From positions 1 through 63,575 of the forward strand of contig CAZRTH010000004.1 of assembly GCA_964602975.1 (NCBI GenBank): a DNA stretch of 63,575 nt, in the 5' to 3' direction. The DNA is from an uncultured Candidatus Saccharibacteria bacterium. GTDB taxonomy: Bacteria; Patescibacteriota; Minisyncoccia; Phycocordibacterales; JBBTRF01. The notes below the pieces were generated by a model. It did not search any database. It saw only the letters and a list, made by a program, of their open reading frames with translations, and was not told the origin of the DNA. This document shows positions 33,565-60,671 of this stretch, one piece after another. The translations under genes and the position numbers were made by a program. Position 1 is the stretch's first letter; each line of letters opens with the position of its first letter.

Positions 33565-34893
33565 ATGAAAAAGAGCACTGCATATACAATACTCGGGATC
33601 ATCATTGGCATCATCGTCGTTGCCCTTGGCATCTTGTATTTCCTTTTCTTGAGGACGCCGGCGAAATCTCCGGACCTTGGACCTGATACAAATAGCGAGG
33701 GGAAGGCAGAACACGGTGGTTTCGGCGGGACAGGGGAGACGAATCCTCCGGCAGTTGATACGGGAGTGCCGACAGGATCCGGAGCGACCACCACCGAAGA
33801 AGTTCCTCCGCCGCCTCGACTACGAAAGATCTCTGCTGGCCCTGTCGCCGGAGCTGTCGCTTTTGACCAAACAGTGAAGGTTGGTACGACCACAAAGACT
33901 GAAACTCATGTTCGGTTCATCGAGCGCATCAACGGCGCCGTATATGAGACTCGTACAGACGTTCTCGATACTCAGAAGATCGCCAGCGCCTCTATTCAAA
34001 AGATCCGCCAAGCACTTTGGGCAAAAGATGGCGCTAGCGTCTATCTTCGATATACCACAGACCAAAATCCGTACGCGGTGGAGACATACGTCGCGAAATT
34101 GACACCATCGAAGACAGCCACCTCGAGCCAAGCCGCCCTGCCGAGCGATATCAACTTTCTGCCGCAAGAGCTACGCGGGAGCTTCCTTGCCAGAAACCTT
34201 GTCGAGGTGATCCCTTCTCCATTCACCCTTGGTACCGTCTTCTACTCGTTGCCAAAATCAGGAAATCTGCAGGGTATTTTGTCGAGCCGAGATGATACGA
34301 GAAAGGTGGAAGTGCTCAATTCGCCTGTACTCGAATGGAGTAGCCAGTGGTTGGCAACCAATCTGTTTGCGCTCACCACCAAAGCATCCGCTTTCTCTGA
34401 TGGGTTCCTCTACTTCCTAAACACCGACACTCAGAAGCTCGATCGTGTGCTGGGTAATATCCGCGGCCTCACCACGCTCACTAGCGCCGATCAAAAATAT
34501 GTCATTTACTCGAACTCGAGCGACAACGGTTTCAGTACCCGACTTTTCAACACAAAGACCGGCGCGCTCGATGCTTTCTCCTTCACTGTCTTGCCAGAAA
34601 AATGCGTCTGGAGCAAGAAGCGTGTATCGATCGTATACTGCGCAGTGCCCCGGGATGTTCCAAATGGCGCCTATCCGGACAGCTGGTATCAAGGAACGAT
34701 GAGTTTTGTAGACGACATTTGGGGCATCGATGCATCGACAGGATCGACCAAGCTGCTCGTCAGCCTGACCGCCGTATCAAAAGAGGAGGTCGATGTAATA
34801 CAACCATTCCTCAGCGCGAGGGAGGATTATCTTTTCTTCACTAACAAAAAAGACGGCTCGCTATGGAGTCTGTTTCTTTCGACGAACAAATAG
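33565..34893 (+). CDS. Hypothetical membrane-anchored extracytoplasmic protein (beta-propeller-like)
   Basis: 442 aa. N-terminal anchor (ILGIIIGIIVVALGILYFLFL), a Gly/Pro/Thr linker, then a repetitive beta-rich body. It is the last gene of the same-strand block. Confidence 0.55.
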   Translation: MKKSTAYTILGIIIGIIVVALGILYFLFLRTPAKSPDLGPDTNSEGKAEHGGFGGTGETNPPAVDTGVPTGSGATTTEEVPPPPRLRKISAGPVAGAVAFDQTVKVGTTTKTETHVRFIERINGAVYETRTDVLDTQKIASASIQKIRQALWAKDGASVYLRYTTDQNPYAVETYVAKLTPSKTATSSQAALPSDINFLPQELRGSFLARNLVEVIPSPFTLGTVFYSLPKSGNLQGILSSRDDTRKVEVLNSPVLEWSSQWLATNLFALTTKASAFSDGFLYFLNTDTQKLDRVLGNIRGLTTLTSADQKYVIYSNSSDNGFSTRLFNTKTGALDAFSFTVLPEKCVWSKKRVSIVYCAVPRDVPNGAYPDSWYQGTMSFVDDIWGIDASTGSTKLLVSLTAVSKEEVDVIQPFLSAREDYLFFTNKKDGSLWSLFLSTNK

Positions 34894-35580
34894 TTCCTGG
34901 CAGATGGCAAAAATGTTGCTCGTGGTCCAGTAGATAGCAATACCGGCGTTGATGCTGTATGAGGCAAAGAACACAAAAACAGGGAGGACGTACTTCATTT
35001 GCGTACTCATGGCATGAGCGAGGTCTCCGCCGAATGACGGTTCCGCTTTCGGATCCTTCTTCATCGCCGGCATTGAATATTTGATCTGGAAAAATTGCGT
35101 TACGGACGCCAACAAGGCCAGTTCCCAGCTTTTTTTGGTGATATCAATGAAAAGGAGCTTCATTTCCACTACGGCTGGAATATGAACGAAGGAGTACAGC
35201 AAAGAAGGATCGATCTTTGGCAAACCGCCACGATAAAAGATCTGGTAAAGCGCGATGATGATCGGGATCTGGATGAAAATAAGCAGGATGTTCGAAAAAG
35301 GATTGATGCCGACCTCTTTGTACAACTTCATGGTCTGCATCGATTGCTCGGCAGGGTCTTTGTACTGCTTTTTCAGCTCATTGATGCGAGGTTCGAGCTC
35401 TTTCATTCTCATCTGGCTCACCACGGCCTTGCGGGAGAGAGGGAAGAGGATGAGCTTTACGATCACCGTGAAAAGCATGATAGCTATGCCGAAATCAGCC
35501 CATTGAGGCAGCGCGTTGAGCAGTAAAATAAGGCCGTTATACAACGGCTCGTAGAAAAACGTATGGTAGAGATAACTCAT
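34861..35580 (-). CDS. yidC: Membrane protein insertase YidC (short type)
   Basis: 239 aa. GIAIMLFTVIVKLILFPLSRKAVVSQMRMKELEPRINELKKQY and position upstream of rnpA-rpmH. Confidence 0.88.
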   Translation of the reverse strand: MSYLYHTFFYEPLYNGLILLLNALPQWADFGIAIMLFTVIVKLILFPLSRKAVVSQMRMKELEPRINELKKQYKDPAEQSMQTMKLYKEVGINPFSNILLIFIQIPIIIALYQIFYRGGLPKIDPSLLYSFVHIPAVVEMKLLFIDITKKSWELALLASVTQFFQIKYSMPAMKKDPKAEPSFGGDLAHAMSTQMKYVLPVFVFFASYSINAGIAIYWTTSNIFAICQELFVRRKKQTP

Positions 35581-35589
35581 CAGGCTATT

Positions 35590-35946
35590 CTAGACCAGTT
35601 TCACTTTTTTGAGAAGCCAAAGGATTTCGGCCTCCAAATCACTGATTGGTATCTCTTTTGCGTCCTTTCCACCAATCCTCACGAAAAACGCCGCGGCAAA
35701 GGGTTGCCTGAGGAGGTTCTTTTTTTTGAGGTCAGCTAGTACGTGTTCTAGGGCAGCGGAGAAGCGGCGTTTTATGCGGTTTCGCAACACAGCCGTTCCA
35801 GCCACCTTCTTTGAGACCACTACGGAGCACTTTGTCTTTGGAGATGGAATGATCCGAGCCGAAAAGCTGGTCGATGAACAAAAAACACCCTTCCCGAGCA
35901 ATTCGGGGAAGAGCGTCTTTGTGACTCGTTGAGCTTTTGGGAGCAT
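35590..35946 (-). CDS. rnpA: Ribonuclease P protein component
   Basis: 118 aa. RNRIKRR motif and conserved rpmH-rnpA-yidC order. Confidence 0.85.
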   Translation of the reverse strand: MLPKAQRVTKTLFPELLGKGVFCSSTSFSARIIPSPKTKCSVVVSKKVAGTAVLRNRIKRRFSAALEHVLADLKKKNLLRQPFAAAFFVRIGGKDAKEIPISDLEAEILWLLKKVKLV

Positions 35947-36304: not shown

Positions 36305-36364
36305 GTCACATTTGCTAAAGCAACTCGACCAGAAATTGGAGGGAGGTGTTAAAATCTTGCGAGT

Positions 36365-36476
36365 AGGGAGGACCCGCAAACACACCGGAGGAACTGCGGA
36401 GGCCGACGGGCCGAGCCGGAGCGAAATTTCAGCAGAAATTTACGCCTATCCTCCGGTGTGTTTGCGGGTCCTCCCT
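36365..36476. repeat. Perfect 28-bp inverted repeat with 56-nt spacer
   Basis: AGGGAGGACCCGCAAACACACCGGAGGA (36365-36392) is the exact reverse complement of 36449-36476. The spacer contains a small AAATTTC/GAAATTT hairpin. Confidence 0.9.
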
Positions 36477-36556
36477 TGTCCACAACTTATCAACATGTTT
36501 CTCCACTCTCCACAAGTGTTGCATTTCCTTGCTAACTTATATAATACGAGTCACTT

Positions 36557-37903
36557 ATGGATTACAAACACATGTGGGATAAGGTACTGGTGGAGATCGA
36601 GCTCGCTATCTCCAAGGCTACTTTCATCACTTGGTTTACCAGCACCCACATTCAAAAGATCGAGGACGGAACCGTTCATTTGCACGTGCCCAATGTTTTC
36701 GCGAAGGACTGGATCAGCAACAAGTACCACAAACAGATCCTAAAAAACCTCCGCGGCCAAAACGACACTATTCGTGCCATGACCTACGTCATCGCAAAAG
36801 AGGATGGTAGCAAGAAGAAGCTCGAAGAAGCTCCGAAGGCTGCTTTCAACCCGACTACACAGCTGCCGCTTCAAGATCTCCAGATCAACAAAGACGACAA
36901 CTTGAATCCCCGCTACACTTTCGACACATTGGTTGTCGGCAGTTTCAACGAATTGGCTCATGCGGCCGCGCAAGCGATCATAAAAAAGCCTGGGCAGGCC
37001 TACAACCCTTTTTTCATCTACGGAAGCACCGGGCACGGCAAGACTCACCTAGTACAGGCGATAGGCAACCATATTAAAACGCACCACGCAGGGAAGAAGG
37101 TGTATTATCTGACATCGGAAAAGTTCGGCCAGGAGTGCATCAACGCCCTTCAAACGAACAAAATGAATTTGTTCAAGGAGAAATATCGAAAATACGATGT
37201 CATCATCATGGATGACGTGCAATTCTTCTCAAACAAGGACAAGATCCAGGAAGAACTCTTCCATTTGTTCAATTTCTTCTTCGATAACAACCGTCAAATC
37301 ATCTTTTCTGCCGACAAACACCCGAACTTCATCGCCAATGTGGAAGATCGCCTTCGTTCTCGATTCAGCTCTGGCATGTTGGTAGAGCTTCCATACCCTG
37401 ACCTCGAGTCTCGAACCGCTATTTTGAAGGCAAAGGCTTCTCAGAGCGGCTTCACTCTCAACAATGAGACGGCGGAGTACCTCGCTTCTTCGGTGGAGGG
37501 CAACATTCGAGAGCTCGAAGGTGCTCTCAACTCTATCGTCTGCCAAGCGCAGCTGAAAGGGAAGGAGTTGAGCATGCTCGAAATCAAGAATTTGGTAAAA
37601 AATAGTGCCAAGCCAAAGAAAACCATCGCCGCGAAGGATATTATCAAAGTGATCGCCGACTATTACAATATCGACGAGGCGAGCATCTACGACAAGACCC
37701 GCCGAAAGGAGGTGGTTCGCCCTCGCCAGATGGTGATGTACATTTTGCGTGAGGATTGCAGTGTTTCATATCCGTCGATCGGGCAAAAGCTCGGCGGTCG
37801 AGACCACACCACCGTCATCCACTCGTGCGAGAAGATAAAGCATGAGATCAAGACAGACCCCGTCTTGATGCAAGAATTGAGCCAGATCCGAGCTCTTTTG
37901 TAG
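36557..37903 (+). CDS. dnaA: Chromosomal replication initiator protein DnaA
   Basis: 448 aa. Walker A GSTGHGKTHL, Walker B IIMDDVQF and C-terminal DNA-binding signature GGRDHTTVIHS. A TATAAT at 36540-36545 lies only 11 nt upstream of the ATG. Confidence 0.95.
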   Translation: MDYKHMWDKVLVEIELAISKATFITWFTSTHIQKIEDGTVHLHVPNVFAKDWISNKYHKQILKNLRGQNDTIRAMTYVIAKEDGSKKKLEEAPKAAFNPTTQLPLQDLQINKDDNLNPRYTFDTLVVGSFNELAHAAAQAIIKKPGQAYNPFFIYGSTGHGKTHLVQAIGNHIKTHHAGKKVYYLTSEKFGQECINALQTNKMNLFKEKYRKYDVIIMDDVQFFSNKDKIQEELFHLFNFFFDNNRQIIFSADKHPNFIANVEDRLRSRFSSGMLVELPYPDLESRTAILKAKASQSGFTLNNETAEYLASSVEGNIRELEGALNSIVCQAQLKGKELSMLEIKNLVKNSAKPKKTIAAKDIIKVIADYYNIDEASIYDKTRRKEVVRPRQMVMYILREDCSVSYPSIGQKLGGRDHTTVIHSCEKIKHEIKTDPVLMQELSQIRALL

Positions 37904-45089: not shown

Positions 45090-45515
45090 ATGAGTGCTAC
45101 CCGCAGACGCACCTCATCAGGTGCCACCGTGATTGACTACAACCGCCGCCAGGCCTTCGGGCTCACTGAGCCGGACCCACTGCCGCAAAACACAGTCGTT
45201 CTTCGTCATCGCGGCTTCGGCCCCGAAATCTCCCAGCCCTGTCACGGTGCCACCGGTTGGACCGAGGACGGTGAGCGCGTGATCTTCGCCAAAAGCTTCA
45301 CTTTCCTGCCCACCCACCACAACGGTGTCGAAACGGTTCATGTCCGCCAGGGCTGGTATCTCGAGGAAAAATACCGGGTCCTGAAGGTCGTGTGCACCGG
45401 CCGCATCGATTGGCGTGTTGCCACGCTGGACATGAGCGAAGCGATCACTCTGGCGCGGCTCGCGCAGGAAGCCGAGGAACGGCGAAGGATGATGTCCCGG
45501 ATGACCAACTGGTAG
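45090..45515 (+). CDS. Hypothetical protein in a visibly GC-richer segment
   Basis: 141 aa from the ATG at 45090 (the tracked ORF uses TTG at 45084). I recognise no motif. A strong terminator follows. Confidence 0.5.
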   Translation: MSATRRRTSSGATVIDYNRRQAFGLTEPDPLPQNTVVLRHRGFGPEISQPCHGATGWTEDGERVIFAKSFTFLPTHHNGVETVHVRQGWYLEEKYRVLKVVCTGRIDWRVATLDMSEAITLARLAQEAEERRRMMSRMTNW

Positions 45516-45560
45516 GTCTCGTGCCGGCTCCGTTACTAAGCCTCAACATCTCATCTCTCG

Positions 45561-45587
45561 AATCTCCGCGCCGGGCGGGGATTTTTT
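45561..45587 (+). terminator. Rho-independent terminator
   Basis: AATCTCCGC-gccgg-GCGGGGATT followed by TTTTTT. Confidence 0.7.
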
Positions 45588-45631
45588 AGTACAAACCTTG
45601 CTTTTTTCACCCCGAGGCGTATTATTTTGGC

Positions 45632-45922
45632 ATGTCTATAGAAACACAAATGCCAGCAATGGAATCGGAGCCAGAGCAGATTGCATATGCAAAAAACGAG
45701 GCTCTTGTCGCTGAAGCGAAAGGCTTTGAGAGTTTAGCGGCCGCGATTACAAAAATCGGACCATTCGAATCTTCCGGCGCTCAGAGAACGCCGGAAGAGA
45801 TCATCGCTAAGATCAACTCTCTGGAAAACGCTCCGGATGAAAAAGAAATAGGAAGTATTCTTCAAACTATTCCGCGCAAATTCGGCATTCGCGGCAAAGT
45901 CATGGACATCATGGGTTTGTAG
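45632..45922 (+). CDS. Hypothetical protein
   Basis: 96-aa ORF, acidic. I recognise no motif. Confidence 0.45.
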   Translation: MSIETQMPAMESEPEQIAYAKNEALVAEAKGFESLAAAITKIGPFESSGAQRTPEEIIAKINSLENAPDEKEIGSILQTIPRKFGIRGKVMDIMGL

Positions 45923-46138
45923 CAATACAAATTAGACGGCGCGTTGAGGCAAGTAAAAAAAGTTTCGCTGGAAGAAAAAAGTTGTCCACATACGGACGGC
46001 TTTTTTCATTGTACTTTCGCAGATTGAGCGCATAATGAAGCGAGTCAATGTAATGTGTTTTTGCGCGACGGCGCGAGGTCGAAAAAATACGTTATACACT
46101 TTTATAGGAAAATTCATTTCTCAGATATTCATACTCAC

Positions 46139-46234
46139 ATGGCAAAAAAGCGAAAGGCTGTAAAGCGAACCAAGAAGACCGCGAAGCGATCGACCAAGCG
46201 CAAGGCAGCGAAGAAGACTTCAAAGCGACGCTAA
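46139..46234 (+). CDS. Hypothetical ultra-basic 31-aa peptide
   Basis: Not in the ORF track. MAKKRKAVKRTKKTAKRSTKRKAAKKTSKRR: 18 of 31 residues are K or R. A hairpin plus T-run follows at about 46262-46291. Confidence 0.35.
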   Translation: MAKKRKAVKRTKKTAKRSTKRKAAKKTSKRR

Positions 46235-46298
46235 CTTCGAGAGGGAATAGCCCTCAAGAAACAAAAAACACCGGTAATACGGCGTTTTTTTGTTTATG

Positions 46299-46327
46299 TT
46301 GACAGTAGTTCTTCACTCGGCTATACT
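46299..46327 (+). promoter_or_regulatory. Sigma70-type promoter of the RHH-RelE pair
   Basis: TTGACA (46299-46304), 17-nt spacer, TATACT (46322-46327), about 35 nt upstream of the antitoxin ATG. Confidence 0.6.
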
Positions 46328-46361
46328 TACATTGTATTACAAACTATACACAATATATTAC

Positions 46362-46577
46362 ATGCGAACCGTACTCAACATTTCTCTCCCAAACGATCTA
46401 GCGAAAGAAGTTCGACGGGAGGTAAAAAACGCAGGCTTTGCTTCAACAAGCGAATTCATTCGTCACCTTATTCGTCTGTGGAATACCGAAAAGCTGGCGT
46501 TGCAGCTGAAACATGACAAAGCGAGATTTGAAAAAAGAAAGGGCAAAACGCTCCGTTCCTTTGCTTCGCTTCGATAA
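46362..46577 (+). CDS. Ribbon-helix-helix (CopG-like) antitoxin
   Basis: 71 aa. MRTVLNISLPNDLAKEVRREVKNAGFASTSEFIRHLIR is the RHH beta-strand/helix pattern. Start set at the ATG at 46362. Confidence 0.7.
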   Translation: MRTVLNISLPNDLAKEVRREVKNAGFASTSEFIRHLIRLWNTEKLALQLKHDKARFEKRKGKTLRSFASLR

Positions 46578-46597
46578 TACCGAAATATTTTCTAGCA

Positions 46598-46858
46598 ATG
46601 CTAATTCTCCTGTATTCGCCTCGATTTGCACGACATTATAAAAAGCTGTCGACAGAGATCAAAGATCTAGCGGAGAGGAAGGAATTAGTCTTTAGAAAAG
46701 ATCCATTTGATAAGTCGTTAAAAACCCACAAATTGCAAGGCCCGCTTGAGGGATTTTACGCGTTTTCAATCACATCTGAATATCGGATCATCTTTGACTT
46801 CCTCAACAAAAACACAATACGTCTTTACGACATCGGTAACCACGATATATATTACTGA
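46598..46858 (+). CDS. RelE/ParE-family toxin
   Basis: 86 aa. KTHKLQGPLEGFYAFSITSEYRIIFDF...IRLYDIGNHDIYY matches the RelE/YafQ-type layout. It lies 20 nt after the antitoxin. Confidence 0.75.
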   Translation: MLILLYSPRFARHYKKLSTEIKDLAERKELVFRKDPFDKSLKTHKLQGPLEGFYAFSITSEYRIIFDFLNKNTIRLYDIGNHDIYY

Positions 46859-46873
46859 TTCTGCCTCGTCGGT

Positions 46874-47884
46874 CTAAAGTAACTTTCCCGAAGCCTTCAG
46901 ACCAAGATGCTCATGCGCTTTGCTAGTGGCGATGCGGCCGCGCGGAGTACGCTCGATGAATCCGAGCTGGAGCAGGTAGGGTTCATGCACCTCTTCGATG
47001 GTCGCTTCTTCCTCGGAGAGCGCGGCCGCGAGCGTGTTGAGGCCCACAGGGCCGCCATTGAATTTCTCGATCAAGACGGTGAGCACGGCGCGATCAGAGG
47101 GGAGGAGGCCGATATGATCGACACCGAGCAAATCGAGTGCCTTCTTCACCACACCCGCATCAAGCCTGCCCTTTTTCACTTGAGCAAAATCTCGGCAGCG
47201 TTTGAGCAGATAATTGGCGGTACGCGGCGTGAAGCGGCTGCGCTTGGCGATTTCCGTGATCGCGGCCGGCTCGATCTCCACTCCGAGGATCTTCGCGGAG
47301 CGCTTCACGATCTCCTCGATCTCGTGCTGAGTATAGAACTCGAGACGGAAGGTGCCACCGCTGAAGCGAGAGCGAAGCGGCGAGGAGAGCATGGCGATGC
47401 GTGTGGTGGCGGCGATGAGCGTGAAAGCCGGCAGCTCAAGCTGTATGGTGCGTGCCGAAGGTCCTTTGCCGATGATGATGTCGAGCGAACCCGATTCCAT
47501 GGCAGGGTAGAGGATCTCTTCGATGGAACGATTCAACCGATGGATCTCATCGACAAAGAGAATGTCGCCGGCCGAAAGGTTGGTCAAAATAGAGGCCAGA
47601 TCACCGACCTTTTCGATCGCTGGACCGGAGGTCACCTTCATCTGAGCGTTCATCTCCTTGGAGATGAGGTGGGCGAGAGTGGTCTTGCCGAGCCCTGGCG
47701 GGCCGTAAAAGAGAATGTGCTCCGGCGGATGGTTACGCTCACGAGCAGCAGTCAGCAGGATGCTGAGATTCTCCTTGATATTTTTCTGACCAATGTAATC
47801 ATCCCACTGCGATGGGCGCAAAGTCTGGTCGAGAAAACTCTCGTCGGCAGGTACTGCGGCAGCAGTCTCTTCATTCTTCAGCAT
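46874..47884 (-). CDS. ruvB: Holliday junction branch migration helicase RuvB
   Basis: Walker [12 protein letters not shown] and Walker [10 protein letters not shown]. Start at the ATG at 47884 puts the P-loop at the usual distance from the N-terminus; the tracked ORF extends to 47956. Confidence 0.9.
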
Positions 47885-47995: not shown

Positions 47996-48024
47996 TTGAC
48001 ATTTTACCCCTTTTGTGCTAGACT
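47996..48024 (+). promoter_or_regulatory. Near-consensus sigma70 promoter with no CDS downstream
   Basis: TTGACA (47996-48001), 17-nt spacer, TAGACT (48019-48024). Confidence 0.6.
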
Positions 48025-48030
48025 TGTCAC

Positions 48031-48269
48031 TGAAGCAGACGGAGATACGGATCTGATTGAAAGAGAAAGGAACGAAAAAAGCCCAAAACAGGGCCTTTTT
48101 TCACGAGTTCCAGCATAGTAATCTCTAAGCAATATGCCTGCAAGGGTTTAGTAGTTTCTCGCCAAGGATGTTCTGGCTCCGGCTGTGACTCTCCTTAGTC
48201 GCTTAACTTGGCTTTTCGTCTAGTATGAAAAGCATTGCTTAGAGATTACTGCGCTCGAATTCCTTTTTC
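48031..48269 (+). ncRNA. Candidate ncRNA: purine-rich 5' part plus a ~160-nt long imperfect hairpin; class unknown
   Basis: No ORF is present. A weak hairpin GCCC-aaaaca-GGGC sits at 48081-48094. A perfect 17-bp inverted repeat AGTAATCTCTAAGCAAT (48117-48133) pairs with 48234-48250 and extends to about 30 imperfect bp. A TTTTT run lies at 48264-48268 immediately after the 3' arm. Confidence 0.45.
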
Positions 48270-48365
48270 TGCCACCATCTTATCGTACATATTTGTTCCC
48301 GCAACTTCCATTTCGAAAAAAATGTGTTGCGGTTTTCGCTGCACGAAGCGCTCCCCTAAAAGTTT

Positions 48366-53858: not shown

Positions 53859-54620
53859 ATGATCTACCTCTTGCACGGCGAAGACACCGAAAAAGCTCGC
53901 GCCAAGGCACACGAGCTGGTGGACATGTTGCGCGCGAAAAAGCCGGACGCGTCTTTTTTCAAAATAGAGGCTGCGGAATTTTCCGCGGAGAAGCTCGACG
54001 AACTGGTCAATTCGCAAGGTCTCTTCGAGAGCAAGTACATTGTTCTCCTCGATCGTGTTTTTGAAAACAAAGAGGCAAAGGAGCAGCTCATCGATGCGCG
54101 CAAGGATCTTGCCGAGTCGCCTCACATTTTTATTTTTCTCGAGAGCAAGGTCGACAAAGCATCACTCACCAAGCTCGAAAAGGTGGCGACAAAATCCCAG
54201 GTGTTTGAGCTTGGAGGAGGGGCAGGCAAGGCACGAACCTTCGCGATGGGGGAGACCTTTGGGCAATTTTTGATTAGCGAGTTCAACATTTTCTCGCTCG
54301 GCGATGCCTTCGGCCGCCGCGACAAAAAAGAGCTGTGGTTTTTGTATAGCAAGGCGGCAATGCGAAATATTCCGGCCGAAGAGATCCACGGCATTTTGTT
54401 TTGGGCTTGGAAATCCATGGCGCTTTCAGCGGGCGCGAAAGACGCCGCCGAGGCCGGTCTTAATCCATTCGTTTTTCAAAAAAGCTCCGGTTTTGCTCGA
54501 AATTTTTCAACAGAGGAATTGACGAATATAGGCGGACGGTTGGTGCGAATGTATCACGATGCGCATCGCGGGAAGGTAGATTTTGATATTGAGCTAGAGC
54601 GGTTTGTGTTGGGGGTGTAG
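53859..54620 (+). CDS. holA: DNA polymerase III delta subunit-like protein (short)
   Basis: 253 aa. MIYLLHGEDTEKARAKAHELVDML... resembles the HolA N-terminal pattern. Call based on pattern and position only. Confidence 0.5.
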   Translation: MIYLLHGEDTEKARAKAHELVDMLRAKKPDASFFKIEAAEFSAEKLDELVNSQGLFESKYIVLLDRVFENKEAKEQLIDARKDLAESPHIFIFLESKVDKASLTKLEKVATKSQVFELGGGAGKARTFAMGETFGQFLISEFNIFSLGDAFGRRDKKELWFLYSKAAMRNIPAEEIHGILFWAWKSMALSAGAKDAAEAGLNPFVFQKSSGFARNFSTEELTNIGGRLVRMYHDAHRGKVDFDIELERFVLGV

Positions 54621-54716
54621 GGCTGCCGATCGCTTGTGAATAAAAAAGAGACCGGCCCAGAGAGTTTCTAGGTCGGTCTTTCGTGTCTGCGCTGTTCTCG
54701 ACAGCTTTAATTTCGT

Positions 54717-55772
54717 TCAGGACTCGTCCTCGAATCCTGGCAAAAGTTCGCCAAGGATATTCGTTGAGATGAACTGCTGGATCAGATCGGGTCGGTCAGG
54801 GTGCTTTGCGATCGCATGTCGAAACTTCGCGTCGCCCATTGCTGGGGTCAGGCTTTCGAGGCTGATTGCGCCAGCTTCTTTGGCCTTTTGTCCAAGTGCA
54901 TAGCGTCTAAGATTAACGCGACCATCTTCGAAGGGAGAAAGGATGCCGACGTGAATGCCTTTTGCTGTGGCTGTCCGAACTACGTCGATCCAAGAGCAGG
55001 TGCGACCACCTGTCAACTCCCAGTTTCGGTCGGGAAGATTTCCCGCCCCCTTGCACTCCAATATCAGGCCACGGACCTTTTCCAAATCCAAAATGTCCAT
55101 GATGATGTCCGGTGGATTGTCGGCTGAAACATTCAGTGTCAAAACGCGCTGCTCGAATTTGGTGTCGAGCCGCAAGCCCTGAACGGCGAGCACCCCATCT
55201 TTCCTCCGTGCCTTGTCTTGGATCAATACATGCGGCCAGGACTGAGCGACGGGATGGATGCCGGGAGTGTAGAAAGCCGAGAAGTCAGAATCTCTCCGCT
55301 TGCGAATCCGTGCGCCGTCCAATACATCGCCGAGGCAGACACTGTAAACACCGACGACATTGGTGCGGACGAATGCTCCTGCGACGCGGAAAGTGTTCGC
55401 GATCTGCATGGGAACATCCGATCCGGACTCATCTTTGCTCATTTGCGAGCCTATTACGAAAAGTGGCTTCTGAAGCGACAACTTGAATGTCATCGCGAGG
55501 AAGGCGCATGTTTCGGCAAGTGAGTCTGTGCCGTGGAAGATCACGAATGCGTCATGAGCATCGTATGTCCTCGCTATCGCGTTGGCCATTTCGACACGAT
55601 CTTTGTGCATCACATTCGTGGAATCTTGGCGGAGAGGAAAGTCCTCCAGCGTCAATTCGATGCCGGCAGGGACGTTGATTCCTGTAAGCAATTCTGCCGC
55701 CGACTTTGCAGGGCTGAGTGGGGTGCCTGTCATTCCAAGCGTTCCACCACCGTTAAGGGCGAAGAGTTTCAT
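54717..55772 (-). CDS. L-asparaginase family protein (type I / GatD-like)
   Basis: Start at the ATG at 55772. N-terminal NGGGTLGMT (TGGTI-type) and HGTDSLAET motifs. Confidence 0.75.
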   Translation of the reverse strand: MKLFALNGGGTLGMTGTPLSPAKSAAELLTGINVPAGIELTLEDFPLRQDSTNVMHKDRVEMANAIARTYDAHDAFVIFHGTDSLAETCAFLAMTFKLSLQKPLFVIGSQMSKDESGSDVPMQIANTFRVAGAFVRTNVVGVYSVCLGDVLDGARIRKRRDSDFSAFYTPGIHPVAQSWPHVLIQDKARRKDGVLAVQGLRLDTKFEQRVLTLNVSADNPPDIIMDILDLEKVRGLILECKGAGNLPDRNWELTGGRTCSWIDVVRTATAKGIHVGILSPFEDGRVNLRRYALGQKAKEAGAISLESLTPAMGDAKFRHAIAKHPDRPDLIQQFISTNILGELLPGFEDES

Positions 55773-55871
55773 ATTTTGTGATGTGCTACTTGGCCTTATT
55801 GTGGCCGGTTTCTTGTTAGCTAAAAACACCATACCATTTTCACAAACAATACGTCAATAATTTATGCTCAC

Positions 55872-56310
55872 AAAAGAAAAAACCAGCATCGGCTCGGGCC
55901 TAGCTGGTTGGAAGAATCGGGACGAGGAGATATCTACCCCATTGCCTGGACGGTCAGGCTTTGCTCATTGGCTTGAAGGCCTATTGAGCACGAGCAGAGC
56001 TTGCTGCACGAGGAATCTTTTGGCGACTTAACGCCAGGATCCCCCAATAACTTGCTCCGATGATAGCAGGTGCTTCGTTAGGCGAGAGAGCTTCACTAAT
56101 GTTGCTCTCTAATTGGGTTGGTTCGATACGCACTTAGCACACTGTCTGGGTCTATTTACTGTCCACCTCACAGATCGTAGTCCCTCAATCGGGCACATTG
56201 ATGGTGAACGCGGCACAGAAACACGACTCGTCTTTCGACTTGTTGTTTTATAACCCTCTCGTCACTCTCTTGCGAGAGCTAACTTTCAATATCCTGTTCG
56301 TCCCGATTCA
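55872..56310 (-). ncRNA. Large (~0.4 kb) highly structured ncRNA with its own promoter and terminator; class unassigned
   Basis: The 500-bp gap has no ORF of 60 aa or more in any frame. The predicted TSS coincides with the 5' arm of a 12-bp closing helix: GAAUCGGGACGA (rc of 56298-56309) pairs with UCGUCCCGAUUC (rc of 55914-55925), enclosing ~370 nt. Internal hairpins include CUCUC-GCAA-GAGAG, GUC-GAAA-GAC, AGAGAGC...GCUCUCU, GGCG-UUAAGU-CGCC and CCUG-ACCGUC-CAGG. The terminator AACCAGC-15 nt-GCUGGUU plus a U-run is at 55872-55909. Confidence 0.65.
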
Positions 56311-56316
56311 ATAGAG

Positions 56317-56345
56317 AGTCTATTCCTTTGGGGAGGGGATGTCAA
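56317..56345 (-). promoter_or_regulatory. Near-consensus sigma70 promoter driving the large ncRNA
   Basis: In the minus sense: TTGACA (56345-56340), 17-nt spacer, TAGACT (56322-56317). These are the same hexamers and spacing as the promoter at 47996. Confidence 0.6.
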
Positions 56346-56363
56346 CTTTTGTTGGTCACCTGA

Positions 56364-57206
56364 CTATTTCTTAAACAACTTCTCAAACGCATCCCGCGAC
56401 ATATCATAATTGAACCCCGCTACTTTCTCTTGGAGTCGGCCATGCGAGGTCTTGTCATATTTCGGAGTTTTCTTTAGCTGGACGAAGCAGACGGCGGAAT
56501 AGCGGCCATCTTTGGCGGTGCGGTCGGTGGCGACTACGCGATGGCAGGTGGCTTTCAGTGTGCCGCCAGAGCGCAGCTGCATCTGCATCGATGGGATGAT
56601 CACGGTCTCGCTGCTTGAGACCGGCATGTCGATCCATTGCTTCTGGTGGGTGAGGCATTGTAGCCCGGCTTCGCTTTCGTAGAGGTGTGGCGTGAAGCCG
56701 CTCTGGTCTGTGTGTGCGCTCGCCGTCTCTTCGCCGACTTTTCGATCGCCAAAATAATGAATGAAGCGGATGAAGTATGCATCCTCACTCGAAGCTACCT
56801 CCTGCGCGAAGTCTTTGATCGAAAAAGCACTTTCTGCTTGCTCGGCGAAGTCCACTATCAGTGGCTTGGCGAGGCGGACCAGCTCGACGGCATCGGTGAT
56901 AAAACGCAAGGCAGTTTGATTGCCGATCTTGCCGGCGTTGTCCAGCAGCCACTTTTGGCCAGCGGTCGTGATATCAAAATTTTCTTTTCGATCGGTCTTG
57001 TTGCCGATGCCGTCCTTCATCTCGTACCCAACTCCATCAGCGTTGTTGCTGTAGGGGAGTCCGCGCTTTGTCTCTGTCGGCAGAGCACAAAACGCTTTCC
57101 ATGATTCAGCCGCTTTTTCGACTGCCGCCCGCAATTCTGGCGGATAGGTCATCTTTATATAGCCAACATCGACAAGATTTTTGATATTTTTGATTGAAGC
57201 AGTCAT
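56364..57206 (-). CDS. 2-oxoglutarate/Fe(II)-dependent oxygenase family protein
   Basis: 280 aa. The HxD facial-triad context (ASAHTDQSGFT), GLQCL...WIDMP and the distal His/Arg context (ATCHRVV) fit the isopenicillin-N-synthase-like fold. Confidence 0.7.
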   Translation of the reverse strand: MTASIKNIKNLVDVGYIKMTYPPELRAAVEKAAESWKAFCALPTETKRGLPYSNNADGVGYEMKDGIGNKTDRKENFDITTAGQKWLLDNAGKIGNQTALRFITDAVELVRLAKPLIVDFAEQAESAFSIKDFAQEVASSEDAYFIRFIHYFGDRKVGEETASAHTDQSGFTPHLYESEAGLQCLTHQKQWIDMPVSSSETVIIPSMQMQLRSGGTLKATCHRVVATDRTAKDGRYSAVCFVQLKKTPKYDKTSHGRLQEKVAGFNYDMSRDAFEKLFKK

Positions 57207-57296
57207 TTTTTCAGCATGAGGAATAATGAGGTAAGTATGCTCCGCGGCAGAAAAGAAAAAAGCGAGGAAGTCCTCGGTAACAGTTTTTTGTGCAAG

Positions 57297-57328
57297 AAAA
57301 AAGCCGGCTACGCTTGCGCGCAGCCGGC
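57297..57328 (-). terminator. Rho-independent terminator of the NfeD-flotillin operon
   Basis: In the minus sense: GCCGGCU-12 nt-AGCCGGC followed by UUUUUU. Confidence 0.65.
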
Positions 57329-57364
57329 CGTGAGGTTCACTTCATAACACAACGATCCGCCTTC

Positions 57365-59170
57365 TTATCTGCCTTCGTCGGGCTTGACGATAATGGGCGG
57401 AGCCTCCGGTTCCTGAATCGGGGCTGGGGGCGGTGTCGTGGTTTCGTTGGTGGTTTTTACCGTTGCGACTGTCGCAGCGGAACCCAACATGTTTGCCAGT
57501 GCCGCAGGGTCCATTTTCAGGAAGGTCAGCAGACCGGTGACATCAACTCCGCTTGCTTTCGCGCGAGAGAAGAAGTCAACAACGATCTGCGGAACAAGTT
57601 GACCCAGTGCCGCCATGCCGTTCTTTGCGGTGTTGCCACCGCCGAGATCGGTGATCTGCACGTTGCCCATTTTGGCGACACCGGCAGCGACTGGTTCGAA
57701 GATGGCTCGCGCGATCTTCTCTGCGGCATCACCACCGTGGTCCAACAGGCCAGGCAGACGTTCGAGGACGAACATGAGCTTTCCGGCCTCGTTCAGTTGC
57801 TGGAGGGCTTCCGCCAGCTTTTGATTGCCCTCGGCCTGCGCCAAGAGCTTCGCTTTTTCGCCGACTGCGACTGCCAGAAGCTGAGCCTCGGTGCCCTTGG
57901 CCTGCGCCAAGAGTTGGGCTTGTTCACCTTCGGCCTGCGCCAACATCGTCTTCTGATTTCCAGTCGCTGTCGCCTCTGCGATGAGCAGGAGCTTCTGCGA
58001 CTCGCCTTGACCGGTGAAGATTGCGGCATTCTTCTGACCCTCCGCCGTCAACTTGACGGTTTCGGCTTCGAGAGTGGCCACGTTCTTGCGGGTTTCGGCT
58101 TCGATGCGTTCGGCATTTTGTTTGCCGGTCGCTCGGATGCTCATCGCTTTGGCCTCTGCCTCTGCAGTGACAATGGTCGTCGCTTGAAGCTCAGCCGACT
58201 TGCGAGTGGCTTCCAGCTGCTGAACCTTCGTCTGGGCTTCTGCGGTTGCGCCATCGCGTTCCGCCTCGAGCACGGCCAATCTCTGCTCCTGGGCAGTTTT
58301 GGCGATTTGTCCGGCCATGTCGGCCTCTGCTTGTTTGGTGGCGGTCTCGAGCTTGAACTGAGCGACCTGAACATCACGCGTCTTTTCGGCGTCCTTGATC
58401 TTCGCATCGTTTTGAGCCTTCGCCTCGGCGGCAGCGCGCTGGGCATCGCTGGTCTTGATGGTGGTTTCGCGTTCGGCTTCGGCCGTGGCGATCTGTGCAT
58501 CTCGCTTTGCCACGGCGACGGCTTGTTTGCCGAGGGCCTCGATGTAGCCTTCCTTGTCCTTCACATCCTGGATGACCAGGGTGAGGATTTTGATGCCCAT
58601 ACGTGCCAGCTCCTGGGAGCATTCGTGCACGACCATCTCGTTGAACTTCGAACGCTCGCGTAGGAGTTCTTCGACCTCGAGGCCGCCGACGATCGAGCGC
58701 AGGTGGCCGCGGAGGATCTCGCCGATCATGTTCTCCATACTCTCCACCGGTTTGCCAAGGAAGTTTTGGACAGCGTTTACTTGTTCCTCCAGAATGGGGG
58801 AGATGCGACAGGTTGCGACACCTGCTACGTGGACGCTGACATTCTTCTTGGTCGGGATGTTGTCCTCGGCGATCTTGATTTGGAATGCTTCCGTGGACAT
58901 TTCCTTGAATTCCTCAACGACGGGCCAGACGAACACGCCGCCGCCGTTGACCATCCTGAAGCCGACCTCGGTGGTCTTGCCGTCAGGTGTCGTGATCCGG
59001 CTCTTCTTGCCGAAGATGACGCCGATCACGTTGGGTGCAATGCGTTTGTAGCGCTTGGTCATGGCCCACACGATGAAGAGGAGGCCAAGGAACAGTCCGA
59101 CGATCAGGGCAGGGATAGTGACCTTGCCGACGTCGAACTCTGTCAATGCTGCAATACTATAGAGGTGCAT
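57365..59170 (-). CDS. Flotillin-like SPFH/band-7 protein with long Ala/Glu/Lys coiled coil
   Basis: Start set at the ATG at 59170 (the tracked TTG at 59245 was rejected). N-terminal anchor (IPALIVGLFLGLLFIVWAM), an SPFH core, then ~250 aa of AEAxA-type repeats. Confidence 0.85.
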   Translation of the reverse strand: MHLYSIAALTEFDVGKVTIPALIVGLFLGLLFIVWAMTKRYKRIAPNVIGVIFGKKSRITTPDGKTTEVGFRMVNGGGVFVWPVVEEFKEMSTEAFQIKIAEDNIPTKKNVSVHVAGVATCRISPILEEQVNAVQNFLGKPVESMENMIGEILRGHLRSIVGGLEVEELLRERSKFNEMVVHECSQELARMGIKILTLVIQDVKDKEGYIEALGKQAVAVAKRDAQIATAEAERETTIKTSDAQRAAAEAKAQNDAKIKDAEKTRDVQVAQFKLETATKQAEADMAGQIAKTAQEQRLAVLEAERDGATAEAQTKVQQLEATRKSAELQATTIVTAEAEAKAMSIRATGKQNAERIEAETRKNVATLEAETVKLTAEGQKNAAIFTGQGESQKLLLIAEATATGNQKTMLAQAEGEQAQLLAQAKGTEAQLLAVAVGEKAKLLAQAEGNQKLAEALQQLNEAGKLMFVLERLPGLLDHGGDAAEKIARAIFEPVAAGVAKMGNVQITDLGGGNTAKNGMAALGQLVPQIVVDFFSRAKASGVDVTGLLTFLKMDPAALANMLGSAATVATVKTTNETTTPPPAPIQEPEAPPIIVKPDEGR

Positions 59171-59241
59171 AGTGCGTTCTTTCTGTCTTTGTATTCTTTC
59201 GGTGTTTGTTGTCGCTACTGTTTTTTCTTCACTCGTTGCTT

Positions 59242-59835
59242 TCAAGCGGCAACGGCGCTCCGTGCTTTCACGACGACACGGTCGCCGAGATCTTGGGTGA
59301 CCACGATCATGGTGCCAGCCTTGATGCTGCCGATCCCGTCAGCGGTCGCCGTGTAACCCACGATCTGACCATTGACAGAAACGTTCACTTCGCCGATACC
59401 TCCGGCGGGAATTGCTGTGACCACGGTGCCGTGTGCGCCTATGACCTGTCCTGGTCGCAAGCTCGAATTTGCCTGCTGTTTATACAGGAAGGAGGCAACG
59501 CCCCAGGCGATGAGCGCCATAACGAGACCTGGAATGAAGCCGATCGCCGTAGCGATGGCCGCACTGGCTCCGTATGCCGTGGCAATCGCGCCGGCAGTGC
59601 TGAAGCCAAGCAGGAAGGCGAAGAAGGCGCGAGGTGACAGGAATGATGGACCACTTTCACCGCCGGCATGACCGACGTCATGATCGTGACCCATATCCGT
59701 GTCGTGGTGATCGCCAAAAACTGCCGAGAAACCAAGGCAAATGAGGGCGCCTAGCACCATCGCGGCGAAGACGAGAAACTGCATTGAGGACAAAATGTCA
59801 CTGGCAATGCTTACCGCAAACAGGTTTGCTGTCAT
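59242..59835 (-). CDS. NfeD-family membrane protein
   Basis: Start at the ATG at 59835 with AAAGG about 10 nt upstream. It has a His/Asp-rich loop (HHDTDMGHDHDVGH), hydrophobic spans and a C-terminal NfeD OB-fold pattern (GQVIGAHGTVVTAIPAGGIGEVNVSVNGQ). Confidence 0.8.
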   Translation of the reverse strand: MTANLFAVSIASDILSSMQFLVFAAMVLGALICLGFSAVFGDHHDTDMGHDHDVGHAGGESGPSFLSPRAFFAFLLGFSTAGAIATAYGASAAIATAIGFIPGLVMALIAWGVASFLYKQQANSSLRPGQVIGAHGTVVTAIPAGGIGEVNVSVNGQIVGYTATADGIGSIKAGTMIVVTQDLGDRVVVKARSAVAA

Positions 59836-59910
59836 AACTGGAGACCTTTCGTAGTTTGTTGTTTTCGTTGTGTTAGAAGTGTCAAAGAGCCACTGCACAC
59901 TTCGTCGCCA

Positions 59911-59938
59911 ACTCTACATATTTTTACGAATTTGTCAA
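59911..59938 (-). promoter_or_regulatory. Sigma70 promoter of the NfeD-flotillin operon
   Basis: In the minus sense: TTGACA (59938-59933), 16-nt spacer, TAGAGT (59916-59911). Confidence 0.55.
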
Positions 59939-59960
59939 CTGTTGCGTAAGGTAGCCATTT

Positions 59961-60671
59961 TTACCGTCCTACCTGCTCATCCTCCTCATAGAAAAAGGGT
60001 AGCGAGTCGATTTTGCCATTGCGAATAGCGATGAGCACTTTGGCGATGGCCTTGAGAGAGTCGAACTCGGCCGATTCATTTTGGATCGCTTGATCGATCG
60101 GCACCCACATATTTTTTCCGAATTCCGTGTCGGTCAATTCACCAGTGTGAGTAGCGGCGTAGGCGATAGGGAAGAAGATATCCGAGAACAGCTCATCTTT
60201 CACATACAACATTCGGCGCTGGATGCCGACTAGCTTAAAAGTAGCACTTAGCCCGGTCTCTGCTTTCAATTTTCGTGCTGCGGCCTGTTCAACAGGCTCG
60301 GCTTTTTGGACGATACCGCCAGGAACACCGATTTTACCAAAAGAGGGATGACTTTGCCGAAGTTGGTTGAGGATCTCGATTTTTCCATCGCGAATGCGAG
60401 AAACGATCGTGATGACATTCACCTTAAAGAGACTTGCGATCTTTTCCCGCCCGCCATCTAAATGGGGGTCTGCGACATGCTTGATACCGCTCTGCGCGAG
60501 AGAGTACCCGTCATCCATGCGCTCCACCAACCCCTTTTTCACGAGAAATTGCAGGTGATAGTTGAAGAGGTCGTTTGGAATCTTTCCCGGCGCGAGTTCA
60601 CTGTACCGAAGTTGCTTCGCGTTCTTGAGTTTGGTGAGAATATGGTTTTGGATGGGGGAGAAGGAAGGCAT
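59961..60671 (-). CDS. Winged-helix (ArsR-like) plus Nudix hydrolase fusion protein
   Basis: 236 aa. N-terminal wHTH pattern (ILTKLKNAKQLRYSELA...FLVKKGLVE) and Nudix box GGIVQKAEPVEQAAARKLKAETGL. Confidence 0.78.
   Translation of the reverse strand: MPSFSPIQNHILTKLKNAKQLRYSELAPGKIPNDLFNYHLQFLVKKGLVERMDDGYSLAQSGIKHVADPHLDGGREKIASLFKVNVITIVSRIRDGKIEILNQLRQSHPSFGKIGVPGGIVQKAEPVEQAAARKLKAETGLSATFKLVGIQRRMLYVKDELFSDIFFPIAYAATHTGELTDTEFGKNMWVPIDQAIQNESAEFDSLKAIAKVLIAIRNGKIDSLPFFYEEDEQVGR

Follow-up and report, generated by a model that had tools for sequence, protein, structure and literature searches.

The locus analysed here lies in a stretch of 63,575 nt from an uncultured Candidatus Saccharibacteria bacterium (contig CAZRTH010000004.1, assembly GCA_964602975.1), hereafter the window. 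A gap of 531 nt separates an asparaginase-like gene (54717-55832, minus strand) from a 2-oxoglutarate (2OG)-Fe(II) oxygenase gene (56364-57206, minus strand), and a first-pass annotation of the letters alone had placed a large structured RNA of unassigned class in it. The locus is almost certainly a real structured non-coding RNA (ncRNA) gene. The reading preferred here, with a probability of roughly 0.6, is that of an independent ncRNA gene of about 440 nt, which belongs to an undescribed family, acts in trans and is built on an invariant five-way junction. The gap is indeed free of open reading frames (ORFs) of 60 amino acids (aa) or more, as had been claimed, the longest one lying wholly between the flanking genes being 55 aa. 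The generic marks of a stand-alone structured ncRNA gene are found together at this locus: a separate promoter and terminator, a conserved secondary structure with compensatory changes, and no ORF shared by the copies.

Five further full-length copies were found in related Patescibacteria (candidate phyla radiation, CPR) assemblies, which gives six distinct copies in all: that of the window, L005/L006 (GCA_974945995.1), L007/L008/L040 (L007/L008 being GCA_038065315.1, a 680-kb contig from Hainich groundwater), L009, L041 and L043/L044. The oxygenase gene led to L005/L006, L007/L008 and L009; L041 was found afterwards as the fifth copy, while the sixth, L043/L044, was reached with a spurious 84-aa ORF of L041 as the protein query. 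E-values in nhmmer range from 1e-48 to 1e-57 against a single sequence and go down to 1e-120 against a profile. Pairwise identity among the copies is 60-72%, apart from L009 and L041, which are 87% identical. Across the six copies, 150 columns of 408 nt (about 37%) are invariant, mostly in junction linkers and internal loops, while the peripheral hairpins are free to change in sequence and keep their shape. No reading frame is conserved, as all six frames carry stops in every copy.

The transcription signals of the window copy are as follows.

56340-56345, minus strand: -35 hexamer TTGACA; AGTTGACA(T/C)CCC is invariant in all six copies.
56317-56322, minus strand: -10 hexamer TAGACT after a 17-nt spacer; TAGACT, TATGCT or TACGCT in the homologues.
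55872-56311, minus strand: predicted primary transcript of about 440 nt (folded body of about 400 nt plus terminator), placed by the promoter and terminator positions and by the full-length homologues.
55872-55909, minus strand: intrinsic terminator, AACCAGC...GCUGGUU and a U-run; a GC-rich hairpin and U-run stand at the same place in all homologues.

The promoter proposed by the first-pass annotation (TTGACA at 56345-56340, TAGACT at 56322-56317) is of the sigma-70 type and matches 10 of 12 consensus positions, and its conserved form is AGTTGACAYCCC, a 17-nt spacer and then TAGACT, TATGCT or TACGCT. The -10 hexamer ends 6 nt upstream of UGAAUC, and the homologous hexamers keep both the spacing and this distance. 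The claim that the same hexamers precede another ncRNA candidate at 47996 also stands, since the exact pair with its spacing is seen twice in the window against none expected. A start on the first base of the end-pairing helix P1 is plausible, as initiation 6-8 nt past the -10 hexamer would fall 0-2 nt from P1; that it lies exactly there, as had been stated, is unsupported. The intrinsic terminator is present as described (hairpin at 55909-55872 followed by the U-run UUUUUUCUUUU), even though a simple terminator scanner missed it because of its long loop. Its stems differ in sequence between copies (for example, GCCGGC/GCCGGU) and covary.

The 441-nt stretch folds with a minimum free energy of -159.9 kcal/mol, against -128.4 +/- 5.6 kcal/mol for dinucleotide shuffles (z = -5.6), and none of 100 shuffles is as stable. 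The elements of the predicted fold, in transcript order, are listed below.

56298-56309, minus strand: 5' strand of P1, GAAUCGGGACGA; pairs with 55914-55925, 95.7% of cells paired.
56289-56293, minus strand: 5' strand of P2, GAUAU; pairs with 55929-55933, with a compensatory change from U-A to C-G in L043.
56261-56283, minus strand: P3 hairpin with GCAA tetraloop; five of nine pairs change on both sides and the fold is identical in each copy.
56252-56256, minus strand: 5' strand of P4, GGGUU, closing the 5' domain (P5 and P6); pairs with GACCC at 56148-56152, paired in six of six copies and invariant.
56223-56246, minus strand: P5 hairpin with GAAA tetraloop (GCAA in L005 and L041); two of seven pairs change on both sides.
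56159-56218, minus strand: P6, a long variable three-tier hairpin; unalignable, yet one hairpin of 60-68 nt per copy (z = -0.6 to -3.0).
56129-56157, minus strand: conserved linker AAAUAGACCCAGACAG..UGCUAAGUGCG, which includes the 3' strand of P4 (56148-56152); conserved in the six-copy alignment.
56082-56131, minus strand: P7, an invariant GCG/CGC closing helix (paired in six of six copies) with a variable inner stem, here AGAGAGC/GCUCUCU.
56058-56080, minus strand: most conserved block, UAACGAAGCACCUGCUAUCAUCG; junction linker plus the 5' strand of P8 (ACC..CUAU, 56063-56071).
55995-56059, minus strand: P9, a tiered hairpin with two conserved internal loops; its tip hairpin is variable and absent in L007.
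55962-55990, minus strand: P10, a variable hairpin, in every copy with differing sequence.
55944-55959, minus strand: P11, a variable hairpin (GCCUG/CAGGC), from per-copy folding.
55936-55942, minus strand: 3' strand of P8, AUGGGGU; long-range helix closing the 3' domain (P9 to P11).
55929-55940, minus strand: conserved block GGGGUAGAUAUC, which contains the 3' strand of P2 (AUAUC, 55929-55933) and some of that of P8.
55914-55925, minus strand: 3' strand of P1, UCGUCCCGAUUC; partner of 56298-56309.

In overall layout, a P1-P2 stalk leads to a five-way junction with P3, the 5' domain (P4), P7 and the 3' domain (P8). The 12-bp end-pairing helix recognised in the first-pass annotation (P1, 56309-56298 with 55925-55914, GAAUCGGGACGA/UCGUCCCGAUUC) and the second helix stacked on it (P2, GGAUAU/AUAUCU, 56294-56289 with 55933-55928) were both recovered, as were the multiple hairpins, now counted as seven internal arms plus the terminator, and the two GNRA caps, which belong to P3 and P5. 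P1 measures 12-13 bp across copies; its outer 7-8 bp are invariant and its inner part varies yet stays paired, one pair being G-C, G-U or A-U. The most conserved sequences are the junction linkers (UGAAAG, GAYRARA, AAAUAGACCCARA..UAAGUGCG and UAACGAAGC). Within the block at 56058-56080, 20 of 23 positions are invariant in the six copies, and GGGUAGAU, within the block at 55929-55940, is likewise invariant in all six.

The structural argument includes an explicit model of 66 pairs in nine helices (P1, P2, P3, P4, P5, the P7 closing helix, P8 and two P9 tiers). Under this model 95.6% of cells are paired, against 35-47% with slid partners, and changes on both sides occur in 10 pairs and 16 cells, a count that none of 500 shuffles reached. 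P8 (ACC(UG)CUAU/AUGGGGU, 7 bp with a 2-nt bulge) is 100% paired in six copies, one pair occurring as U-G, C-G and U-A; three of six pairs of the P7 inner stem change on both sides; and a covariance model of the P9 sub-domain recovers all six copies at 64-114 bits. RNAalifold on MAFFT alignments failed for P6 and performed poorly for P10 and P11, and per-sequence folding was used instead. By this means the unalignable segments (P6, the P7 inner stem, P10 and P11) were seen to form hairpins whose number and type do not differ between copies, mostly at z of -2 to -4 (-2.3 to -3.9 for the P10 and P11 segments). Two competing arrangements were discarded: AGCAGG/CCUGCU together with a hairpin GGGG..CCUC, which compete with P2 and inner P1, gave way to P2 because of L043, and a CUGCU/GGUAG pairing gave way to ACC(UG)CUAU/AUGGGGU because L007 breaks it. 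The first-pass annotation had made its reading depend on covariation in homologous regions, and both conserved structure and compensatory changes are found in the five homologues.

The distribution of the family appears to be confined, so far and as far as searched, to a narrow clade of Paceibacteria-like Patescibacteria (CPR), a few ultra-small bacteria of groundwater. The flanking proteins are closest to Patescibacteria, the nearest taxon-named asparaginase homologue (75% identity) being from Candidatus Kaiserbacteria, and oxygenase homologues at 52-66% identity come from metagenome-assembled genomes named Taylorbacteria, Paceibacteria, Parcubacteria and Saccharibacteria. The 30 GTDB loci around these oxygenase genes held no copy by nhmmer, motif clusters or the sub-domain covariance model. 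A strict core pattern, TAACGAAGCACCTNCNATCATCG, had no match in GTDB representatives and returned only the contig of L007 itself from JGI metagenomes; it is too strict, since L041 has ATTATCG. A listing of gaps free of stop-to-stop ORFs, meant for distant copies, fails to flag even the known loci. Asparaginase synteny also failed: the 75%-identity homologues (L001-L003) lie in entirely other surroundings, with tRNAs rather than this RNA in the gaps upstream of them. Upstream of asparaginase in L002 (3540-3900), two tandem units of about 240 nt each end like the 3' half of a tRNA (GAGTTCGATTCTCG...CCGCA) and adjoin an intact tRNA; these may be split, intron-containing or duplicated tRNA genes. 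In L003 (3690-3960), likewise upstream of asparaginase, TTGACA promoter-like sites precede a structured, GC-rich segment and a hairpin resembling a terminator; this region has no Rfam match at gathering score and is unrelated in sequence to the RNA at 55872-56345. In the window itself, the asparaginase-like ORF probably starts about 18 codons downstream of its first ATG (55832; region 55780-55832), judging from homologues that cover only 94-95% of it.

Searches against known families gave no identity for the RNA. The first-pass annotation held that a confident Rfam match would make it ordinary; none was obtained in Rfam 15 at gathering score or at E<=10, for the window copy or the homologues. 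At gathering score, tRNAs were the sole matches in the whole window, and 58 kb of clade DNA gave no relevant match; at E<=10 nothing relevant appeared in the 621-nt region, the whole window or two homologue-bearing loci, E<=10 in the 621-nt search corresponding to about 13 bits or less, with weaker matches unlisted. The literature search turned up no account of an RNA of this kind in CPR. The annotation had left a choice between a divergent ribonuclease P (RNase P) RNA and a novel large structured RNA, and the latter branch is upheld by the lack of an Rfam match and by the covarying homologues, whereas the former is not. It is very likely that the RNA represents a new family and is not a diverged form of RNase P RNA or of transfer-messenger RNA (tmRNA).

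A rival explanation holds that the RNA is the clade's own RNase P RNA, diverged past the Rfam models and the classical conserved regions (CR), which binds RnpA and cleaves the 5' leaders of pre-tRNAs. The rnpA gene is encoded where it had been reported (35590-35946, minus strand; Pfam Ribonuclease_P, 42.5 bits), so an RNase P RNA must exist and is expected here. The 63.5-kb window yielded none, nor did clade loci totalling about 58 kb, although the searched window and loci are less than 20% of a genome, so a canonical rnpB unseen there says nothing; clade and related loci gave no canonical RNase P RNA or tmRNA, but none happened to be included in them. Very few RNAs of about 400 nt are expected in a 0.7-Mb genome, and this one resembles bacterial RNase P RNA in its size, in having a separate promoter and terminator, and in the P1-P2-P3 order at its 5' end. 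Bacterial RNase P RNA (RF00010 type A, RF00011 type B) is likewise a stand-alone gene of about 350-400 nt with P1 end pairing, P2, a P3 hairpin and a multi-domain fold with GNRA loops, the shared P1-P2-P3 order being a generic resemblance only. According to Lui et al. (2021), RNase P RNAs in 10 of 35 circular CPR genomes were detectable only below the RF00010 noise cutoff, often with helices missing (PMC8172020), so that the negative covariance-model result is not decisive alone. Those diverged RNAs still matched RF00010 and retained 'many conserved features' (PMC8172020), and here RF00010, RF00011 and RF00373 gave no match at E<=10 in the 621-nt search, nor in the homologues. The absence of the P4 elements of RNase P from the window copy, already remarked upon in the first-pass annotation, extends to the family: ACAGAA is lacking in six of six copies, as is any conserved GGAAAGUCC-like or AGAUGAAUG-like element. 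There are thus no CR-I, CR-IV or CR-V sequences, and the conserved blocks are unrelated in sequence. In RNase P RNA, the 3' strand of P4 (CR-V, ACAGAA..GGCUUA) separates the 3' strands of P2 and P1; CR-I (GGAAAGUCC) comes after P3. The present topology is wrong for this: those two 3' strands are only 0-3 nt apart, too close to accommodate the 3' strand of a P4 helix, and no P4-type pseudoknot was seen in the covariation scan. A diverged RNase P RNA is quite improbable. It is also unlikely that the five-way-junction core is a catalytic centre, whether of a new natural ribozyme class retained by ultra-reduced CPR bacteria or of an RNase P RNA invented anew, which would be partnered by RnpA and lack the universal P4/CR-I/CR-V core. 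A highly aberrant tmRNA (ssrA) that rescues stalled ribosomes would account for the size, the paired termini, the many hairpins and the housekeeping-style promoter and terminator, all shared with tmRNA (RF00023 and permuted forms), and A-CC follows P1 in three of six copies. CAGGAUAUUGAA is also loosely like the tmRNA 5' element CUGGAUUCGAC, and AAAUAGAC like the sequence upstream of the E. coli resume codon. The first-pass annotation had rejected tmRNA, rightly on present evidence: ARAGORN detected none in either the window or the homologues, even with thresholds relaxed to 80%, and at 70% gave only two mutually inconsistent matches on different strands, while RF00023 and the permuted-tmRNA models gave no match at E<=10. 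The GGUUCGAnUCC T-arm is absent from all six copies, and there is no tRNA-like domain or consistent CCA. P1, at 12-13 bp, is sequence-variable, with A-U at position 3 and without the G3-U70 pair, against a 7-bp acceptor stem in tmRNA. No conserved reading frame or Ala-Ala-stop tag exists, with indels falling in the candidate region, and a tmRNA identity is hardly credible.

Among explanations that look to the neighbourhood, a giant cis-regulatory leader (riboswitch or attenuator) would control the downstream gene through the terminator. The next gene lies on the same strand in five of six genomes, and in the relatives its distance from the terminator is 35-50 nt; no promoter of its own was detected by the scanner in front of NUDIX; and the intrinsic terminator directly follows P1, as in many riboswitch expression platforms. 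However, that gene is not constant. All copies lie in a NUDIX-2OG oxygenase-holA-polA neighbourhood but in different slots, namely upstream of NUDIX in four genomes (L005, L007, L009 and L041), between oxygenase and asparaginase in the window, and convergent with the opposite-strand holA in L043/L044, which makes a cis-regulatory leader unlikely. In addition, NUDIX-2OG is present without such a leader in L004, and a promoter-like site for the asparaginase gene lies downstream of the RNA terminator in the window (TTGACG-18-TATGGT, 55857-55828, between the terminator and the asparaginase-like gene). Riboswitch and T-box models gave no match. The terminator stems vary while the upstream sequence is invariant, so that no conserved antiterminator pairing is apparent in the inspected alignments, for which no dedicated computation was made. 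Taken together, a leader of this kind seems improbable, and the absence of both a constant cis target and a visible conserved antiterminator favours a stable RNA acting in trans. The view that the locus is not an RNA gene at all, but rather a group of small ORFs, the relic of a gene or an element conserved as DNA, could draw on the 84-88-aa ORFs that gene callers placed on the RNA in two public assemblies. These ORFs are not conserved, every frame of every copy carries stops, strand-specific compensatory changes maintain the helices, and promoter and terminator are conserved on one strand; this view is scarcely tenable. Relatives carry a gene for a 340-aa membrane protein in the equivalent slot, but descent of the RNA from it as a pseudogene was rejected for want of tblastn similarity. 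A phage or viral origin was rejected because viral collections gave no match. The 'hypothetical proteins' called over the RNA (P0241 at L041:292-546; P0242 at L043:489-755 and L044:137-403) are annotation artefacts, as their frames are not conserved, and they served as handles for homologues through the protein database.

When segment 1-2863 of L004 is compared with window 53859-60671, the oxygenase is 81% and HolA 82% identical, and the order is sigma70-NUDIX-oxygenase followed directly by a convergent holA, with no RNA, asparaginase or 340-aa membrane protein. In this clade, gains and losses are concentrated in the oxygenase-to-holA interval.

Under the preferred reading of an independent, trans-acting ncRNA, the molecule would act in trans as a compact fold, and its mode of action would be neither coding nor cis regulation of the next gene, nor that of an RNase P RNA or tmRNA. 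The invariant junction core would be the functional site, most likely a protein-binding surface (a ribonucleoprotein, RNP, scaffold) or a site of RNA-only tertiary assembly, while the two GNRA loops would dock and stabilise the fold and the variable hairpins would serve as struts. The chances that the RNA works by such a trans-acting scaffold mechanism may be put at about even. Several ornate bacterial RNAs form RNA-only homo-oligomers (PMC12286853), and it is by analogy with these that we infer the step from a compact fold with an invariant junction to a scaffold or an RNA-only assembly.

OLE, ROOL, GOLLD, raiA and HEARO, none of whose Rfam 15 models matched at E<=10, share with this RNA a great length, an elaborate fold, independent transcription, a narrow distribution and a function that is not deducible from sequence. 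Invariant junction nucleotides combined with variable peripheral stems are likewise a common trait of ornate RNAs. In size this RNA falls between raiA, which is shorter, and OLE, ROOL and GOLLD, all of which are longer; its context is one of core housekeeping genes in CPR bacteria, not of prophage or mobile elements, and it is absent from viral collections. 6S RNA resembles it in an abundant-type promoter, a terminator and end pairing, and acts by protein binding in trans, the mode proposed here; it differs in being only about 180 nt long and rod-shaped, with a bubble at its centre, against a five-way-junction RNA of about 400 nt, and RF00013 gave no match.

Several points weigh against this interpretation. 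Six copies from one narrow clade, two of them 87% identical, leave covariation statistics with little power, and related sequences can beat shuffles even without structure. The invariant helices (P4, the P7 closing helix and most of P8) are beyond the reach of covariation, and in RNAalifold an alternative AGCAGG/CCUGCU pairing of the 5' block competes with P2. The transcript ends are predicted positions, derived from sequence. Trans action and a protein partner are purely what we infer, and no partner gene is evident. The constant NUDIX-2OG-holA-polA neighbourhood leaves some room for a local role, and L004, the closest relative sampled at the locus (81-82% protein identity), has no copy there, so the RNA may be dispensable or may have moved. 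As regards identity, a canonical RNase P RNA and tmRNA elsewhere in the genome are not demonstrable from a 63.5-kb window, and the RNase P RNAs of CPR bacteria are known to fall short of default Rfam thresholds in some cases (PMC8172020).

Three other regions of the window merit description. Between the RuvB-like and type II secretion system (T2SS) ATPase genes lies a second conserved non-coding unit (47996-48350, plus strand), with counterparts at L005:18346-18859 and L007:18380-18892 (reverse strand). It comprises the TTGACA-17-TAGACT promoter, a transcript of about 70 nt and a terminator with a covarying stem; a further block of about 165 nt (48105-48270) is near-invariant in three genomes and forms a long stem with a branched tip (z = -6.2), with no Rfam match. 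This unit is probably another RNA gene outside known families. Just upstream of dnaA (36557-37903), and near rnpA (35590-35946) and yidC (34861-35580), a long near-perfect palindrome (36330-36512) gives weak microRNA-precursor 'matches' on both strands and is probably part of the replication-origin region. Lastly, 1.3 kb without an ORF of at least 120 aa (45515-46874) contains a strong TTGACA-17-TATACT promoter-like site (46299-46327, plus strand) and several terminator-like hairpins (45974-46007, plus strand; 46290-46263, minus strand), again with no Rfam match.

Structured bacterial RNAs longer than about 300 nt are, to our knowledge, rare, with only about a dozen classes known, and large RNA classes have taught lessons on catalysis, ribosome rescue, membrane RNPs and RNA-only cages. 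A large part of bacterial diversity belongs to CPR/Patescibacteria, whose genomes are tiny, at about 0.7 Mb, and as far as we know their non-coding RNAs are almost unexplored. The spurious proteins called on this RNA, together with a second unassigned conserved RNA 8 kb away, indicate that Rfam-based annotation misses real RNA genes in the lineage. The RNA is also a concrete, clonable target for structure determination and partner identification. That a 440-nt gene with about 150 invariant nucleotides is kept in so small a genome implies a function worth its cost.

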